Source of the DNA: Escherichia phage Sciku
Sequence record: MK931439.1
Direction: 5' to 3' (one strand)
Length of the DNA: 43,130 bases
Shown here: positions 19,428-27,350 of the stretch, piece by piece
Layout of the letters: the number at the start of each line of letters is the position of its first letter
Position numbering within the stretch: position 1 is the first letter of the stretch
The notes under the pieces: generated by a model
The model's database searches: none
What the model was told of the DNA's origin: nothing
Seen by the model: only the letters and a program-made list of their open reading frames with translations
Made by a program: the position numbers and the translations under genes

Positions 19428-19789
19428 ATATTAATTCTTATACAGGGTTGCCGTACGACTTTCGCCGTCGTAATTGCTGGCACCATGTCCGTAACGTTCG
19501 TGCGGATGTAGGCCTCTTTACGCCTGAGTTTAACGTCGCTTCGCCAACACAGATTAACGACGCCTTCGAAGAAGGCCATAAAGATACTAAAGGCCTTGTA
19601 CGCGTAGAAACTCCGCAAAACTTCGATGCCGTGCTGATGGCAACACGGCACAGAAACCGTGTAATCTGGCACGCCGGAGTATACTATGACGGTATGGTTA
19701 GTCATTGCGAGCTGGCGAGTCGCCAGGTACGGTTAGACCGTCTGGAAGACTTGCGCGAAACTTATGCGGAGATAGAATTTTGGCGCTGA
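19424..19789 (+). CDS. tail assembly protein with NlpC/P60-like peptidase motifs
   Basis: RRRNCWHHVRNV and HAGVYYDG resemble the Cys and His catalytic regions of NlpC/P60 domains found in lambda K-like proteins. Confidence 0.55.
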   Translation: MNINSYTGLPYDFRRRNCWHHVRNVRADVGLFTPEFNVASPTQINDAFEEGHKDTKGLVRVETPQNFDAVLMATRHRNRVIWHAGVYYDGMVSHCELASRQVRLDRLEDLRETYAEIEFWR

Positions 19790-22335
19790 CATTACATTAC
19801 ACCCGTAACGAAGACGGTACTTTCGACCGCGAACGGCACAACGTACCGCCGATGGAATACGTCGTCGCTAACATCCCCGACGGGGTGCCTGTACGTATTT
19901 ACCGTGGCGAGATCGGCGAGGACACGGAAGTAACTGAAGATTTCGAAGCGCTGAAAGAAGACGATGTTTTCCATATTATCGAAGGCGCTGGTGGCGGTGG
20001 CGGTTTTCTGGGTAAACTCCTGGACCCTTTGGGTGTGCTTAAATTTGTTACCAAGTTGATTTCTCCGTCGCAGAAAACGCCTAAAACGAGTTTAGCGAAC
20101 CAGCAGGCTGAGTCCCCCAACAACAGCCTGACGGACCGAAGCAATAAACCCCGTCCATATGAACGGTCGTATGATATTTGCGGCAGAGTCCAGACTATCC
20201 CTAATGACCTCATGACTACCTATAAAATATTCGATGAATCTGGTCGCATTATTGAATACGGATACTACGATGCCGGTCGTGGGTATCTGGACATCAAGGC
20301 CGAAGATATTACCGACGGCGATACTAAGGTACAGGAGATTACGGGGACCTCTGTCGCGGTGTACGCGCCGTTTACATCCCCCAACAATACAAATACCCCG
20401 CAGCTTCTGGTGGGGGAACCTATCAATCAGAATCTTTATATAACTATCGCGTCTAATGAAGTAGATGGAGCCGTTCTTAAAGCCCAGAACGATATTCGGG
20501 TCAACCCAAGCGACACGGGCCGCGTGAGATATGACTCTGCTACAAAAATTGGATACCTGTATGACGACACGGGGGATTCTGGCTTCGCGGAAATATTATC
20601 TGTTGGTGACACCGCGTCGTTCAATAACTTTGACGTTCCGGACGTAACAAATACCAACGGCAACTTTCGTGTTCTTTATGTCGATAACTTCGAGCTGCGG
20701 GTCGACACCGGCGGCGCGTCTAATTGGGCTGCTTTAGGCTCAACCACCTATTCACTTTCCCAGAGAAGTGACACGTGGGTAGGCCCCGTGGATACGTATG
20801 AAAGAACATTAACCGACTGGACCACCTTAAACCGCCTGGAAGTTGAACGCGTAGTAGCCAACATCGCTGCCGCTAACGGTATGTATAAAGACAACGGCAG
20901 TAAATTGCGTACGTCGGTAACTATTGAACTCCAATACCAACTACTCGATGAAACCGGTGCCCCATACGGGAGTATCTATTCAAAACAGGCCGTTATATCT
21001 GGTCGGTCCGCCGACTACACCGGAGTTACTATTTACGCCGACTTGCCCATGAGGTCGAAAGTTAGGGTACGTGCCCGTCGTGTTACCAACCTGGACCTTG
21101 ATTTCGAGGGCACCGTGGTAGACGAGGTTTCCTATATCAACCTTTACGGTCAGGTCCGTGACACTACGCCACATTACGGCAATCGTACCACCGTACACTC
21201 GGCACGTAAGCAGACGCCGCGGGCCGCAGAGATTAAGCAACCACAGTTACGTATGGTCGCCACAGAGATGGTGTACAAATACCTCGGTAATGGTGTATTC
21301 GACACCGTAATGACACCGAATACTCAGGCCATTCAATCATTAATACGTCTCGCCCGTGACCCGGTAGTAGGTAATCTCAACCTAACAACATCCAATATGG
21401 ACAAGTTGTTAGCGACTCAAACCGAAATAGAAAACTATTTCGGTAACGTTGAGGCTGGGCAATTCTGCTACACTTTTGACGACTATAAAATGACCATGCA
21501 GGATATCATCAGCACAATAGCCGATGCTATTTTCTGCACTCCATATCGTAAAGGGCAAGACATATTACTGGATTTCGAGCGCCCGCGTATGGGGCCGGAA
21601 ATGGTATTCACACATCGAAGTAAGACAACAGCTTCGGAAAAGTGGACGCGCACATTCAACGACGCTCAGGTATACGATAGTCTTAAGTTCTCCTACATCG
21701 ACCCAGATACTAACGTAAAAGAGACCATCAGCATTCCCGCCGAGGGCGGTGTTAACACAGAAACGTATGACTCTAAAGGTATACGTAATTATCGTCAGGC
21801 GTACTGGGCGGCGTACCGTCGGTACCAGAAGAACCTGTTGAAGAAGGTGACGGTATCATTCACGGCGACAGAAGAAGGGGTTTTTGTGCTTCCAGGACGG
21901 GCAATAAGCGTAGTTAAAGGTTCACGCGTAGCACCCCAAGACGGTTATGTTATTGCGGTTAATGGCCTTACCCTGACGCTATCACAGCCTGTTACGTTTA
22001 CCCCAGGAGATGACCACTCCATCATCCTCAAGAAGCGAGACGGAGGAGTTCAAAGTGTTGCCGTTGTGCCGGGAAGCCACGACCGTGAAGTGGTTATGCT
22101 ATCTGCGCCACAGGAAGCAATCTACACGGGGAATAGTGCGCTAAAAACTGAGTTTTCATTCGGCAACGAAGCAAGGCATAATGCTCAGATGATTCTTGTT
22201 TCCACAGTTGACCCCGGAGATGACAGAACAGTCAAGATTACGGGTTACAACTATGACGACGGATTCTATAAATACGATGGCGTCGCGCCATACGGCAGCG
22301 GTTTCTCCGACGGATTCAGCAATGGTTTTAATTAA
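19780..22335 (+). CDS. tail tip / host specificity protein (J-like)
   Basis: about 850 aa ORF after the NlpC/P60 gene; start set at in-frame TTG 19780 preceded by GGAGA (uncertain; the track ORF opens at 19705). Confidence 0.55.
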   Translation: MALTLHYTRNEDGTFDRERHNVPPMEYVVANIPDGVPVRIYRGEIGEDTEVTEDFEALKEDDVFHIIEGAGGGGGFLGKLLDPLGVLKFVTKLISPSQKTPKTSLANQQAESPNNSLTDRSNKPRPYERSYDICGRVQTIPNDLMTTYKIFDESGRIIEYGYYDAGRGYLDIKAEDITDGDTKVQEITGTSVAVYAPFTSPNNTNTPQLLVGEPINQNLYITIASNEVDGAVLKAQNDIRVNPSDTGRVRYDSATKIGYLYDDTGDSGFAEILSVGDTASFNNFDVPDVTNTNGNFRVLYVDNFELRVDTGGASNWAALGSTTYSLSQRSDTWVGPVDTYERTLTDWTTLNRLEVERVVANIAAANGMYKDNGSKLRTSVTIELQYQLLDETGAPYGSIYSKQAVISGRSADYTGVTIYADLPMRSKVRVRARRVTNLDLDFEGTVVDEVSYINLYGQVRDTTPHYGNRTTVHSARKQTPRAAEIKQPQLRMVATEMVYKYLGNGVFDTVMTPNTQAIQSLIRLARDPVVGNLNLTTSNMDKLLATQTEIENYFGNVEAGQFCYTFDDYKMTMQDIISTIADAIFCTPYRKGQDILLDFERPRMGPEMVFTHRSKTTASEKWTRTFNDAQVYDSLKFSYIDPDTNVKETISIPAEGGVNTETYDSKGIRNYRQAYWAAYRRYQKNLLKKVTVSFTATEEGVFVLPGRAISVVKGSRVAPQDGYVIAVNGLTLTLSQPVTFTPGDDHSIILKKRDGGVQSVAVVPGSHDREVVMLSAPQEAIYTGNSALKTEFSFGNEARHNAQMILVSTVDPGDDRTVKITGYNYDDGFYKYDGVAPYGSGFSDGFSNGFN

Positions 22336-22347
22336 AGAGGACTCTAT

Positions 22348-24720
22348 ATGTCAAGCGGATGCGGTGACGTTTTAAGCCTGGCGGATTTACAAACCGCCAA
22401 GAAGCACCAGATTTTTGAAGTTGAGGTTATCACTGGTAAATCCGGCGGTGTCGCCAGTGGTGCGGATATCGATTATGCGACCAACGCGGTTACTGGTCAG
22501 ATGCAGAAGACTCTCCCCGCCGTGTTGCGAGATGCGGGGTTCTTCCCGGCATCTTTTGATTTCACTACCGGCGGGACATTATCGACTACAGACCGCAATA
22601 AGGTCGTTTATGACCCAGTAAGCATGGCCTGGTATTCATGGGGTGGTTCTTTACCAAAGGTCGTCCCCGCGGAAACTAACCCGTTACTGGACACAAATTG
22701 GAAACCGCAAACAGACCCGAATCTACGCAATGACCTTGAAAATGGCATGTACAGAACGGACGCAACCGCCGTTAAATATGTCCCTGGGGTGGTTATAGAT
22801 AGCACAACAGATAACCGGGCCGCATTGTATGCATTCCCTGGCAAAGTTTATATCCCAAAAGACGTCCAGCTACGCTGTAATTTCCTGCCAGATGATGATG
22901 TAACAAAATTTACTGGTGAAGGAAAAATTCTCACGCGCGACCCATGGGGTAACGAGCACATTTTCGACGTTTCACTGGCAACTCATGGGAGCAAATACAC
23001 TGCATTCAACGTAATAAACCAGTTCGCTCGCCGCAATACGCTATGTCGTGTTGGTATCGTTGGTGACTCAATCACAGACGGTGCATACGGAACCGGATGG
23101 GTAGCCAACCCAACGGATTCAAACGGGGACCTGTCCTCGACTAATTATGACCACAATAGCAATGGTGGCGCAGGCTCCTGGTTCCGTACCTTCACGGACT
23201 GGCTTAACCGATTTACAAAAAATGGTGCTTTCATCTTTAAAGCAGAAAACTGCGCATCTTCTGGAAAGCGACTTATTGACGGGTGGGCTAATCGTAATTT
23301 CGACCATGGCTTTTTCAAAAACACTGCATACGGGAATGTTCCACCGGATGTCTGCTTTATGTCTATGGGCGTTAACGATAACGGCCTACTGAATACGTTA
23401 GGGTTCGATCAGTACTTATTCCGTTTTGAGCAGTTTATCCGTAAAGCATGGGGCTATGGATGTGCTGTCTGCGTTGTTTCAATGAACCAGAATGGCTCAC
23501 AATGGGCGGCTCTCGAGGCATCAATCAAGAAGCATATTGAACGCCTGTTCCCCGCGGTAGAGTTCCTCGATCTCTCTCAGGCAGTAACTGAGATGTACAG
23601 AGATGTCGGTAGCTACACCTTAGAAGAAATTTGCCGTCGTCCTACCAATGGCTCTTTCGACTACACGCACTTTGCGCCCCTTGGTCACCAATATATTGGC
23701 GCTTATGCCGCGACCAAGGTTATGCCTTATCGCGTCCATAAGGCCACAAAAGGGAATAATTTCCTGCCGGTGTCGCCTAACGATATCCAACCATTCGGGT
23801 ACCCTTCCGGCAGTACATATGACGTTTCTATGGAGCGACTTAGCGGAAATTCATACCTGAATGGGCTTACCGGATGGGGCGTGGTTAAGCCCGCTACTGA
23901 AAATTTAACCATACGATATTTTGTCTGGTGTGATACTTCTGACATATCAATGGTTATTTTTGAACCATATAACCCTACTTACATTGGTTCCAGGCGCGCA
24001 AATACTGTATCAATACGCCAACAAGATACCCGTAATACAGCATATAGCTCCGGTAATATCGCGAGTAATGGCGTCTCATCGTTTACGAACAAACTCACCA
24101 CACGAACTGGAATCCTTAGAAAAGGACTGAATCAGATTGAGATTGTTTACGATGGTACGCCGTCGAAAGTATACCCTCCCGCTCTGTTATTCAGAGGAGA
24201 GCTGAACGAATCATGTTCTCAGAACGCCTCTGTATACTTGGCTGCAAATGCGATAAAGGGTGTTTACGGGCAGGTAATAGATAAAGCAGATCTCTTATTA
24301 GCGTATGGTGCAGAAACAGCAAATGATGAAGCGCCGGATATGTACGGCGCTACTAAGTCATCAAATGTTCAAAATGTTGTCCTGTCAGCTTTGCCCGTTG
24401 GTTGTGGTGTTGTTTTTTACTACAAACCCACGTCACGAAGTGGAGTTGTCGCCAAGAGAGTGGCGACTGGCATCGAGATCTCGACGATGCTTTTTGGCGC
24501 ACTTACTGTTATCGGCACCTTGACTTGCGATGTGACCGGCGAAGTCATGCTCACAGCCGGCCTGGCACCTTCAGTACCTACAATAACAGTTAAACCCACT
24601 ACCGGCGGCACTGTTCAACAAGCTGTTACTGGTCACTCTGGCGGCAAGATAGCCCTGATTAACAAGGGGGCTTCCGGTAACACAATAACGGTTAAATCTT
24701 CATCTCAATTCGTCATTTAA
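22348..24720 (+). CDS. tail fibre / tailspike with SGNH-hydrolase (esterase) domain
   Basis: 790 aa; SGNH block I GIVGDSITDGAYG and block V DYTHFAPLGH in the central region; last structural gene, followed by a terminator. Confidence 0.65.
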   Translation: MSSGCGDVLSLADLQTAKKHQIFEVEVITGKSGGVASGADIDYATNAVTGQMQKTLPAVLRDAGFFPASFDFTTGGTLSTTDRNKVVYDPVSMAWYSWGGSLPKVVPAETNPLLDTNWKPQTDPNLRNDLENGMYRTDATAVKYVPGVVIDSTTDNRAALYAFPGKVYIPKDVQLRCNFLPDDDVTKFTGEGKILTRDPWGNEHIFDVSLATHGSKYTAFNVINQFARRNTLCRVGIVGDSITDGAYGTGWVANPTDSNGDLSSTNYDHNSNGGAGSWFRTFTDWLNRFTKNGAFIFKAENCASSGKRLIDGWANRNFDHGFFKNTAYGNVPPDVCFMSMGVNDNGLLNTLGFDQYLFRFEQFIRKAWGYGCAVCVVSMNQNGSQWAALEASIKKHIERLFPAVEFLDLSQAVTEMYRDVGSYTLEEICRRPTNGSFDYTHFAPLGHQYIGAYAATKVMPYRVHKATKGNNFLPVSPNDIQPFGYPSGSTYDVSMERLSGNSYLNGLTGWGVVKPATENLTIRYFVWCDTSDISMVIFEPYNPTYIGSRRANTVSIRQQDTRNTAYSSGNIASNGVSSFTNKLTTRTGILRKGLNQIEIVYDGTPSKVYPPALLFRGELNESCSQNASVYLAANAIKGVYGQVIDKADLLLAYGAETANDEAPDMYGATKSSNVQNVVLSALPVGCGVVFYYKPTSRSGVVAKRVATGIEISTMLFGALTVIGTLTCDVTGEVMLTAGLAPSVPTITVKPTTGGTVQQAVTGHSGGKIALINKGASGNTITVKSSSQFVI

Positions 24721-24724
24721 ATAC

Positions 24725-24750
24725 AAAAGGCCCCTTTCGGGGCCTTTTCT
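24725..24750. terminator. bidirectional rho-independent terminator
   Basis: AAAAGGCCCC-TTTC-GGGGCCTTTT hairpin between convergent structural and replication blocks. Confidence 0.7.
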
Positions 24751-24888
24751 CTACTCTTCGGATAACTTCTCCAGTACAAACGCCAGTTGCGCATTAGCGG
24801 CGTCTCTCTGTTGCCGTAGTCGTAGAACCTCTTCTTCGAGTTCCTCGATACGTTTTTGCAATGCCGGAATTGGGGCTATGATGTTCAT
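24751..24888 (-). CDS. small coiled-coil hypothetical protein
   Basis: 45 aa ORF whose ATG overlaps the helicase stop (ATGA); heptad-like IEELEEEVLRLRQQ. Confidence 0.3.
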   Translation of the reverse strand: MNIIAPIPALQKRIEELEEEVLRLRQQRDAANAQLAFVLEKLSEE

Positions 24889-27350
24889 TTCTTACCTCGT
24901 CTCTTCATGTAATTAAGCAATTCTTCCTGTACAGATTTCTTCTCGTCGGTGCGCGCGGCAACAACCTCATCCAGCGTGTCTTTAGCGACGATGTGATAGA
25001 GGAACACCGGGCGCTCGTGTCCAGCCTGTTTCTGACGAACAGGGCCTATGCGCTCGACAACCTGCAAATAGTGCTCGAGGTTCCATCCCTGACTTATAAA
25101 CGCCAGATGATGCCCTCCATCCTGTAAATTCAAACCATGGCCGGCTGACGCGGGATGAACACATAAGATTTCGATTTCACCACGGTTCCACGCTTCCATC
25201 TGCTTATTACCCTTAGCTCCTTTGGCAAACGCCTTAGCCTGCGGGAATCGCTTAAGTATGCGCTCCAGTTCGTGTTTAAACTGATAGGCCACCAGTAACG
25301 GCGCGCCCTGCAACTCCTCAACAATGGACTCCAGTGCGTCCAGTTTCGTGTCATGCACTTTCTCCCAGTCTTTCGTTGCTTCGCCATCTGGCCCTGATAC
25401 ATACACGGCACCGGACGCAATCTGGAGACACTTTGATGTCTTCGCTGCCGCGTTAGCGGCTTCAACTTCCCCGCTCTCGAGTTCCGCAAATAACTTCTCC
25501 TCCATATCGATGTACGCCTGACGCGCTTTCTTCGGCAGGTCTATTTCAACAGGAACGATAATCGGCGCTTCGCAACCGAACCACTCTGCAGCATCGATAG
25601 TGAGACTGATATCCTTCATCTTCTGATGAATCTCGGTATCCGCGCCCGGGCGAGCGTGATACTCACGCGCCATAGCCGATTTGCCTTTCTGTATCGAATT
25701 AAACCAGCGGTCGGTAAACGCCGTATACGAAGAACCAAGTCGCTCGCCTGCGTCTATAAACCAGTTCTGCCCCCACAAGTCTTTGAGGCCGTTTGGTGAC
25801 GGCGTACCGGTCAGGTTGATAAAACGCTTAACCTTACCAAACGCCACTTTACTAAGCGCCTTTGCTCGCTTGCTGCCACCAGAACGGCTGCGGAACGATT
25901 TAAGCTTCGTGCTCTCGTCGGCAACGATAACTGTGAAAGGCCAGTCGTCTTTGCCGTAGTAGTCAATCAGCCACTCGATAACTTCGTAGTTAGTGCACAC
26001 CACGTTAGCGTCGGACTCAAGCGCCGTGATGCGGCGCTTCTCCGAACCGGTCGCATCTACTACACGCAGGCACGGGAAACCCCAACGTGCCTGTTCCGCG
26101 GGCCACGTGCCAGACGCAACACGCAACGGGGCGAGGATTAACACGCGGTCGTCGTCATTAAGTTGCCCATTACGGAACAGGCGGTTGAGAACCCACAACG
26201 TTGAGCTTGTATTGTGCGTGACAGTGAAGTCCCCCAATAAAAACCTACTGTCACCGTCGATAGTGAAGCCGAAATAATCATCTACGCCGACCGGGGTTAT
26301 GGATTCTATACCAACGTTAAGCACGTTCTTATTAATATTACGCTTCGGTAAATTCTGGTGGCGTCCTCGCACGAAAGGTACCTCAGAAAAATCGCCAGAT
26401 ACCGACACACGGAAGTAGTCACCCCAAACATCAGTGTTTGCGCAACGCTTACGAGTTTTCTTCTTGTAAGCAGCAAAACCAAGAGAACGGCATAGATAGC
26501 AAAAATCATCAGCAAGTCGCTCGCTTACCGAAATCCAGTCAAAACCCGCTTTAGACAAATCGCAGTAACCATCACTATCCAGAAGCCCCGCCAGCAATTC
26601 TAACCGCTGTCGCCGGTCGCCGCATTTGTAACTATGCGGTATATGCTTATTGTTCAGGACACCCGCCGATTTCAGCGCGTGCGTAAACCCGTGCTTCTTA
26701 TGACCTGTGTTGCCGTAAGATATACTCCATGTAAGTCCTTCTTTTCGTATTTGCATCCCATTACGTGCTGCGTACGACTCAAGATAAGCCCTTATTTCCT
26801 TTTCGTTCTCTCCTGATGTTATGGCCCCCGACGACGAAGTACCGTCACCCAGCCATAACCCCATAAGGTACGGAGGCAATAAAGCCTCGTCCTGCTCTTT
26901 CCTTGTAAAATCGACAGGTACCCGCCAACCCTTAAGATACCCATTAGGTCCGGTTACATATTTCGGCAACTTAAGCCAGTCGCGGACGCTTATGTCGAAA
27001 ACGGTATTATCTGGCCATGAACCTTTTGCAATCCCTGTAGTAGTTCGCAGGGATAATATATGGCTTTCGTTGACCGTATACGACTCTCCTTTTCGCGGTT
27101 TAACCTCGTACATCATCTCCCGGCCTCTACCGAGAGACAGTACATTTCTAGGCGTTGAATCCGGCCCCATAAGCACGTCACCGACGATGACGTCTTCTAC
27201 TTTCTTGGTCGTACCGTCAAACATAATAACTTCCGTCCCGCGTTTCAGGCACTTGCCGCTGCCCATACTAGCCCAGATATTGCAACGTGGGTGCTGTAAC
27301 ATAAACGACGTCATTATTTTCTGGTATTCCCTGCGCCTAAATTTACTCAT
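24885..27350 (-). CDS. SNF2-family helicase precursor containing an intein
   Basis: motif I ASMGSGK|T interrupted after Lys33 by a 347-aa insert; C-terminal helicase region with GHGLNLQ; mature protein predicted 474 aa. Confidence 0.8.
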   Translation of the reverse strand: MSKFRRREYQKIMTSFMLQHPRCNIWASMGSGKCLKRGTEVIMFDGTTKKVEDVIVGDVLMGPDSTPRNVLSLGRGREMMYEVKPRKGESYTVNESHILSLRTTTGIAKGSWPDNTVFDISVRDWLKLPKYVTGPNGYLKGWRVPVDFTRKEQDEALLPPYLMGLWLGDGTSSSGAITSGENEKEIRAYLESYAARNGMQIRKEGLTWSISYGNTGHKKHGFTHALKSAGVLNNKHIPHSYKCGDRRQRLELLAGLLDSDGYCDLSKAGFDWISVSERLADDFCYLCRSLGFAAYKKKTRKRCANTDVWGDYFRVSVSGDFSEVPFVRGRHQNLPKRNINKNVLNVGIESITPVGVDDYFGFTIDGDSRFLLGDFTVTHNTSSTLWVLNRLFRNGQLNDDDRVLILAPLRVASGTWPAEQARWGFPCLRVVDATGSEKRRITALESDANVVCTNYEVIEWLIDYYGKDDWPFTVIVADESTKLKSFRSRSGGSKRAKALSKVAFGKVKRFINLTGTPSPNGLKDLWGQNWFIDAGERLGSSYTAFTDRWFNSIQKGKSAMAREYHARPGADTEIHQKMKDISLTIDAAEWFGCEAPIIVPVEIDLPKKARQAYIDMEEKLFAELESGEVEAANAAAKTSKCLQIASGAVYVSGPDGEATKDWEKVHDTKLDALESIVEELQGAPLLVAYQFKHELERILKRFPQAKAFAKGAKGNKQMEAWNRGEIEILCVHPASAGHGLNLQDGGHHLAFISQGWNLEHYLQVVERIGPVRQKQAGHERPVFLYHIVAKDTLDEVVAARTDEKKSVQEELLNYMKRRGKK
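26211..27251 (-). mobile_element. intein with LAGLIDADG homing-endonuclease domain
   Basis: begins with Cys (TGC at 27251-27249), ends His-Asn (26216-26211) before Thr +1; two LAGLIDADG motifs YLMGLWLGDGT and LLAGLLDSDGY; in frame, 1041 nt. Confidence 0.8.

Follow-up and report, generated by a model that had tools for sequence, protein, structure and literature searches.

What does the gene that closes the rightward late block of Escherichia phage Sciku (MK931439.1) contribute to adsorption, and does its product cut a host polysaccharide, deacetylate it, or only bind it? We followed this question in the 43,130-nucleotide stretch of DNA analyzed here (the window), for which a first-pass annotation made from the sequence alone had proposed a tail fiber carrying an esterase. 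The gene is an open reading frame with an ATG start that encodes 790 amino acids and lies exactly where that annotation had placed it (Table 1). It is preceded by the tape-measure, minor-tail, and lambda J-like tail tip genes. The J-like gene ends at 22335, the Shine-Dalgarno sequence overlaps the final base of its stop codon, and a ribosome binding site is annotated at the same place in phage Shashou. A consensus terminator scan missed the hairpin that follows the stop codon, which was revealed by direct folding (dG of -17.3 kcal/mol, z of -4.4, with none of 200 shuffles equally stable). In Shashou, this hairpin carries a terminator annotation for each strand. The leftward replication genes run toward it from the other side; as a bidirectional intrinsic terminator, it separates the late (+) block from the early (-) block. 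Sciku itself is a siphovirus (Kagunavirus, Guernseyvirinae), not a podovirus. No second spike gene or counterpart of gp66, the fiber from which the spike of phage G7C branches, was found adjoining the gene, whose product appears from its sequence and setting to be the single receptor-binding tailspike of this Kagunavirus.

Table 1. Features of the Sciku tailspike locus (positions in the window; aa, amino acid residues of the tailspike).
Feature	Position	Strand	Basis
Tailspike gene, Kagunavirus anchor and predicted G7C gp63.1-type esterase body	22348..24720	+	ORF, PHROG 21878, 4QNL
Shine-Dalgarno sequence AAGAGGA	22335..22341	+	Sequence reading; 6 nt upstream of ATG
N-terminal virion-anchor module, aa 1-~128	22348..22731	+	Kagunavirus similarity, K1ind1 match, PHROG 29731/20900
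Tail_spike_N (TSP1/gp66-type) subdomain, aa 71-112	22558..22683	+	PF18668, 26.6 bits vs cut-off 25
Linker across the anchor/body recombination junction, aa 130-143	22735..22776	+	pLDDT <50; similarity switch
Imported enzymatic cassette	22759..24668	+	85% nt identity to Enterobacter hormaechei prophage tailspike genes (blastn, L002)
gp63.1 'domain 3', aa 145-208	22780..22971	+	PF21562 Gp63_3rd_G7C, E 9e-30, 102.8 bits vs 27
SGNH/GDSL esterase domain, aa ~230-460	23035..23727	+	Predicted fold, Foldseek, PF13472 sub-threshold
Ser241 codon, block I nucleophile (GDS)	23068..23070	+	Conservation; aligned to GDS of 4QNL
Gly306 codon, block II oxyanion-hole glycine	23263..23265	+	Conservation
Asn343 codon, block III (GVND) oxyanion-hole asparagine	23374..23376	+	Conservation
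Block V DYTH, Asp438 and His441 of the catalytic triad	23659..23670	+	Conservation; aligned to DTTH of 4QNL
Galactose-binding-domain-like beta-sandwich, aa 483-615	23794..24192	+	PF21988 G7C_GBD, E 5e-9, 36.4 bits vs 27
C-terminal ConA-like lectin-type beta-sandwich, aa 617-790	24196..24717	+	Predicted fold, probably that of the gp63.1 C-terminal domain
GC-rich hairpin AAAAGGCCCC-UUUC-GGGGCCUUUU, A and U runs on its flanks	24725..24748	.	Direct folding

The esterase proposal rested on two short motifs, SGNH block I (GDS in GIVGDSITDG) and block V (DxxH in DYTHF). Both are present, at aa 236-245 (GDS at aa 239-241) and aa 438-442 (DYTH at aa 438-441), together with two blocks that had not been listed, block II SSG (Gly306) and block III GVND (aa 341-344, with Asn343). 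To evaluate the role of chance, we shuffled the protein 20,000 times with its composition preserved. Of the shuffled sequences, 28% contained GDS, 1.8% had GDS followed by DxxH 150-260 residues further on, and 0.1% had this pair with GxND in between. A chance origin of the full set is thus unlikely, and homology settles the matter anyway. The generic Pfam model PF13472 (GDSL_2) aligned over aa 238-448 but stayed below its gathering threshold (E 1.8e-4, 22.5 bits vs 32.9). The same was true of G7C gp63.1, for which PF13472 failed and PF00657 barely passed (26.7 vs 23.6). This SGNH subfamily is poorly caught by the generic GDSL models because of a long insertion between blocks I and II, which in Sciku comprises about 50 family-specific residues (aa 246-296) with invariant H269, G274, and W278.

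Loss of the catalytic Ser or His in homologs had been named as grounds for giving up the esterase. Among 30 diverse homologs (81% to 28% identity), Ser241, Gly341, Asn343, Asp344, Asp438, and His441 were instead invariant, and Gly306 was kept in at least 90%. A wider count took in every retrieved homolog alignable to the SGNH region, 229 in total, and gave near-universal retention at the aligned positions: Ser241 in 223 of 224, Asn343 in 222 of 222, His441 in 150 of 150, Asp438 in 145 of 150, and Gly306 in 203 of 223. Judged from these alignments, strong purifying selection maintains the catalytic machinery across the homologs. This bears on whether the SGNH domain could be a catalytically dead or irrelevant binding module in a spike that acts as an adhesin only. 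A precedent of a kind exists in Salmonella phage epsilon15, whose esterase petal is not needed for infection according to earlier studies that a recent preprint (10.64898/2026.07.31.742079) cites. The Sciku protein, however, retains all five catalytic and oxyanion residues, which are strongly conserved across the family, and has no other enzymatic domain that would make the esterase redundant. We regard a purely adhesive role as very improbable.

The predicted structure agrees with the motifs. A delimitation of the SGNH domain by structure prediction had been suggested, and an AlphaFold2 model built on 30 homologs (mean pLDDT of 81.9, confident from aa 145 to 790) places an alpha/beta domain at aa ~230-460. 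Within it, strands and helices alternate over aa 233-458 at a pLDDT of ~90 (strands at 233-238, 297-301, 335-340, 373-378, and 405-408), in keeping with the three-layer alpha/beta/alpha fold of SGNH hydrolases and its parallel central sheet. Foldseek matched this central domain to the CE3 esterase 2VPT (TMt of 0.65) and the GDSL protein 4RSH (TMt of 0.79) with a probability of 1.00 each. By motifs, homology, and predicted fold, the presence of an SGNH esterase domain that had been called probable is borne out.

Across the rest of the protein, one relative stands out. The only strong match among PDB sequences was 4QNL, the structure of G7C gp63.1 (phmmer E 1e-96, aa 71-616), in which the GDS and DxxH motifs are aligned; identity to gp63.1 is 35% over 615 residues. 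The same entry ranked first when the whole model was compared with the PDB using Foldseek (E 9e-63, TM of 0.71, 774 columns), and PHROG 21878 'tail fiber protein' covers aa 71-786 (E 7e-148). PF21562 and PF21988, both defined on gp63.1, flank the SGNH domain here too, and by sequence and model the two proteins share domain order and probably folds across the entire body from aa ~71 to 790. The PF21988 region (aa 483-615) is all-beta in the model with a pLDDT of ~90. The C-terminal domain (aa 617-790) is the most distant part: it has no Pfam match, including to G7C's own PF22245, and BLASTP against the G7C C-terminus found no match. A profile-profile comparison of the two C-terminal domains with hhalign, using disjoint alignments, nevertheless gave a probability of 76% (E 2e-5). 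The whole body thus probably has the gp63.1 architecture, with a strongly diverged lectin-like domain, a likely determinant of specificity, at its C-terminus. Because identity to gp63.1 is 35% and the C-terminal domain is different, the substrate specificity of G7C is not transferable to Sciku.

These results change the description of the protein more than that of its active site. The first-pass annotation had described a tail fiber with an embedded SGNH domain; the domain is there, but it is not an insert, as the whole body from aa ~71 to 790 is gp63.1-like. The accompanying remark that the rest of the protein has no recognizable glycosidase motif stood up in a Pfam scan that gave no glycosidase, lyase, or beta-helix match. 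A right-handed parallel beta-helix or pectate-lyase domain is absent from both the Pfam scan and the model, which consists of the alpha/beta domain and beta-sandwiches; the reading as a beta-helix depolymerase was rejected on these grounds. The beta-helix tailspikes of the PDB (P22/HK620/CBA120 type) match only the N-terminal ~130 residues. An NCBIfam scan gave one weak, meaningless match only. A reading as a lipase was also considered and rejected. The protein is a predicted esterase-only tailspike body, for which 'tailspike' is a better name than 'fiber'.

The N-terminal part has a different history from the body. The tailspike gene is 99.8% identical in nucleotide sequence to that of Escherichia phage Shashou (MK931440.1), also a Kagunavirus, at identical coordinates, and the gene is also present in Schulenburg and Snoke, where identity is about 97.5%. 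All five differences between the Sciku and Shashou genes are non-synonymous, a pattern with a chance expectation of ~24% that we did not treat as evidence of selection. About 100 Kagunavirus records match only nucleotides 1-290 of the gene, at ~80%. In blastn comparisons, similarity to the kagunaviruses NRG857CP3 and fFiEco02 runs through the J-like gene and ends at 22711/22733 (codon ~122-128), and similarity to the Kagunavirus backbone resumes at 24714, just before the stop codon. At the protein level, the K1ind1 tailspike shares 65% identity over aa 1-131 and nothing beyond, and the tail spike N-termini of PHROG 29731/20900 match the anchor module. Similarity to G7C gp63.1 starts at aa 71, within the Tail_spike_N subdomain. 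By these comparisons, the anchor (aa 1 to ~128) is common to other kagunaviruses whatever their enzymatic body.

The sharing of this anchor bears directly on the annotation of the Shashou counterpart, whose product name in GenBank is 'tailspike endosialidase', with a note citing BLASTp similarity to the K1ind1 tailspike (the Schulenburg and Snoke counterparts have generic labels only). If that label were right, the Sciku protein would be an endosialidase as well. The cited similarity exists, but it is limited to the anchor, aa 1-131, and the K1ind1 tailspike itself has no endosialidase Pfam domain. A Pfam scan of the Sciku protein at E up to 1 found no endosialidase, stalk, Peptidase_S74, or beta-propeller domain, and its body is homologous to an esterase. 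The endosialidase reading is refuted at the level of sequence and fold, and we give it practically no credence. With the similarity confined to the anchor and no endosialidase domain present, the label is wrong; on the homology described above, the Shashou gene should be labeled an SGNH esterase (deacetylase) tailspike.

The closest relatives of the remaining part of the gene, the cassette in Table 1, are tailspike genes in Enterobacter hormaechei prophages. Homologs P0002-P0041 are 85-90% identical in amino acid sequence over aa 133-790. The E. hormaechei prophage spikes are also 790 aa long (e.g., P0017) but have an unrelated N-terminus; their genes sit in a sipho-type prophage tail module and are followed by a gtrA/gtrB/gtrC-type O-antigen glucosylation cassette, with yedD and the fli genes adjacent. 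The same body occurs on a P22-type head-binding domain (P0045, PF09008) and on a longer anchor in E. coli prophages (P0042 and P0056, 912-914 aa). Taken together, the E. hormaechei and E. coli prophage spikes (P0017; P0045; P0042/P0056) are 79-90% identical to Sciku over aa 133-790 in all domains, including the C-terminal one, and their bodies are probably of the same specificity type as that of Sciku. The phages themselves differ: the prophages are temperate, with gtrABC seroconversion genes and unrelated spike anchors, whereas Sciku is a virulent Kagunavirus. Related bodies were also found in N4-like phages, in ~39-kb coliphages (Penshu1 and Pisces), in an Aeromonas phage, and in a 152-kb phage. 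The family is small, with 131 clusters at 50% identity (E <=0.001), or 44 at E <=1e-30, among 1.84 billion representatives; only 4 of 5,426 complete E. coli genomes have a near relative, at 76-79% nucleotide identity. From these alignments the gene is a mosaic in which a Kagunavirus anchor is joined to an imported enzymatic cassette. Recombination at two points, the anchor/body junction and the 3' end of the gene, would have brought in the enzymatic body as a cassette of ~1.9-2 kb. Kaguna- and Gamaleyaviruses have been described as exchanging receptor-binding domains at conserved junction motifs (PMC10408124).

What such a body may do can be approached through its characterized relatives. As summarized in two later papers (PMC10743462, PMC6393563), G7C gp63.1 is an O-antigen deacetylase (Prokhorov et al., 2017, Mol Microbiol 105:385) that strips the lateral O-acetyl group of the E. 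coli 4s O-antigen and leaves the backbone uncut. These summaries describe the deacetylation as essential for G7C to infect and report that rough mutants resist the phage, as do acetylation-deficient (wclK) mutants. Possum gp66 is an SGNH deacetylase, shown experimentally to act on Pectobacterium O-polysaccharide with the backbone left intact (PMC9569702). The suggestion in the first-pass annotation that such domains deacetylate O-antigen in some podoviruses fits the closest characterized relative, since G7C is a podovirus, although the carrier here is a siphovirus.

From sequence homology and the predicted fold, we consider it likely that this Kagunavirus tailspike with its gp63.1-type body begins adsorption by deacetylating a polysaccharide on the host surface. 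The anchor would dock the spike to the tail tip, and the presumed trimer would bind the O-acetylated polysaccharide, most probably LPS O-antigen. The Ser241-His441-Asp438 triad, with Gly306 and Asn343 forming the oxyanion hole, would then remove O-acetyl groups and leave the sugar chain uncut. On the pattern of G7C, adsorption would have to begin with this specific binding and deacetylation, after which the tail tip would reach the outer membrane, and host range would depend on the O-acetylation of the receptor. In this scheme we infer that the spike trimerizes, that it is catalytically active, which substrate it acts on, and that infection requires it, with homology as the ground for the esterase activity and the O-antigen substrate.

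The same fold and chemistry could also serve an O-acetylated capsule or exopolysaccharide (K antigen, colanic acid, or an ECA-like glycan) in place of LPS O-antigen. That other kagunaviruses target capsule (K1 hosts; K1H in PMC10408124) makes such a substrate conceivable for the Sciku spike. SGNH receptor-binding proteins, proposed to be capsule deacetylases, are reported to be common in Klebsiella prophages, and the C-terminal domain, which probably bears the specificity, differs from that of G7C. Against this, the characterized relatives G7C gp63.1 and Possum gp66 both act on O-polysaccharide, and the closest homologs are found in prophages that carry gtrABC O-antigen glucosylation genes. 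We therefore think a capsular substrate rather unlikely and retain O-antigen deacetylation as the preferred function.

Comparison with other systems indicates what is particular to Sciku. G7C is an Escherichia phage of the genus Gamaleyavirus, an N4-like podovirus, in which the spike branches off gp66 on the neck; the Sciku spike is presumably attached to a siphovirus tail tip by its Kagunavirus anchor. With this anchor and a gene that directly follows the J-like gene, a branched attachment through a gp66-type fiber does not apply, a difference in virion context and not in the enzymatic body. The fibers of the Pectobacterium Cbunavirus phages CB1, CB3, CB4, and Nepra align with 99% of aa 133-790, right through the C-terminal domain, at ~32% identity, and PHROG 26143 matches aa 133-778. 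Cbunaviruses are, however, N4-like podoviruses of another host genus, and their fibers have an alpha-helical N-terminus on a connector fiber, unlike the Sciku anchor. The other Kagunavirus spikes (K1H/K1G, K1ind1, and fFiEco02) show the reverse pattern. They share the anchor, are likewise encoded between the J-like gene and the terminator, but their bodies are unrelated and of depolymerase type (endosialidases in K1H/K1G, an HK620-like spike in K1ind1, and a body with a Peptidase_S74 chaperone in fFiEco02), whereas that of Sciku is a predicted esterase. The epsilon15 spike, gp20, is also a tailspike with an SGNH esterase that removes O-antigen acetyls (10.64898/2026.07.31.742079). There, a beta-helix endorhamnosidase carries the esterase as an accessory petal at its C-terminus, whereas in Sciku the esterase is the only enzymatic domain.

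The finding is a gp63.1-type esterase body on a Kagunavirus anchor, and it adds little conceptually, since the family, fold, and mechanism of such proteins were known before. A link between a Kagunavirus and an esterase spike was not found in the limited collection of literature searched. The analysis corrects a database annotation, the 'endosialidase' label in Shashou, and provides a clean example, with finely mapped boundaries, of a cassette exchanged between a virulent coliphage and prophages of Enterobacter. It also places the esterase cassette on several anchors and in several phage types (Kagunavirus, Enterobacter sipho-type prophage, P22-type anchor, N4-like, ~39-kb, and 152-kb phages). 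The proposed function predicts that host range depends on O-acetylation. If so, resistance could arise by loss of an acetyltransferase as well as by rough mutations, which matters for the therapeutic use of such phages.

We offer a wider reading only tentatively. A virulent siphovirus with an O-acetyl esterase as its only receptor-binding protein would have to get through an O-antigen layer that it does not cut. If the esterase is strictly required for infection, Sciku, Shashou, Schulenburg, and Snoke would provide a second, morphologically different system in which to test the proposal that deacetylation, proceeding processively, serves as a motor or a conformational trigger, as opposed to clearing a path. 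The 85% nucleotide identity of the cassette to E. hormaechei prophage spikes could mean that an acetylated O-antigen is common to the E. coli host and E. hormaechei, with possible cross-genus adsorption.

The spike gene differs from its counterpart in Escherichia phage Shashou at five nucleotides, all of which change an amino acid; 14 differences in total separate the two sequences over 14.4 kb. None of the five falls on a catalytic or invariant position of the spike, and the fact that all are non-synonymous is statistically unremarkable. P0017, the 790-aa Enterobacter prophage homolog, has the Shashou residue at positions 347, 644, and 697 and the Sciku residue at position 250. In the K1ind1 spike, cited for the "endosialidase" label that Shashou carries, the endosialidase Pfam domain was not found. 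The only Pfam matches in this protein were Phage_spike_2 and a weak Tail_spike_N, and the K1ind1 record describes its C-terminus as HK620 tailspike-like.

Features in and around the spike gene and in the compared loci (substitutions as Sciku/Shashou residue)
Feature	Coordinates	Strand	Remark
J-like tip attachment gene	19705..22335	+	upstream of spike gene
G250E	23096		spike gene
L347Q	23387		spike gene
K514E	23887		spike gene
I644R	24278		spike gene
R697Q	24437		spike gene
Helicase gene	24885..27350	-	directly downstream of spike gene, opposite strand
K1ind1 tail spike	L008 (phage K1ind1 locus):2832-4994		cited basis for Shashou label
Prophage tail module	L002 (Enterobacter hormaechei locus)		tape measure, minor tail proteins, NlpC/P60-like protein, 825-aa J-like protein, 790-aa spike

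The J-like gene starts at a TTG (19705) in the mechanical listing, as opposed to position 19780 in the Shashou annotation. Its 3' part (21136 onward) shares about 75% identity with other kagunaviruses, and this similarity passes unbroken into the spike anchor. Beyond the spike gene, where the late and early gene blocks converge, lies a GC-rich hairpin (24725-24748) whose perfect 10-bp stem is bordered by an A-run and, at its opposite end, a U-run. This hairpin is likely a bidirectional terminator. A consensus terminator scan did not pick it up.

The helicase gene contains an intein at roughly 26204-27255. These ~1,050 bp are absent from the kagunaviruses NRG857CP3 and fFiEco02, in which both flanks align, and the Shashou annotation places an intein with a homing endonuclease at this position. 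The mechanical ORF begins (27350) upstream of the Shashou-annotated start (27266).

The nearest relatives of the enzymatic body of the spike were found in a sipho-type prophage of Enterobacter hormaechei (GCA_039938775.1; JBDUUW010000001.1, L002:1-15131), which adjoins yedD and fliDST/fliC. Next after its tail module comes a gtrA/gtrB/gtrC-like cassette for O-antigen glucosylation. An esterase spike on such a seroconverting prophage suggests that the receptor is an acetylated Enterobacter O-antigen.
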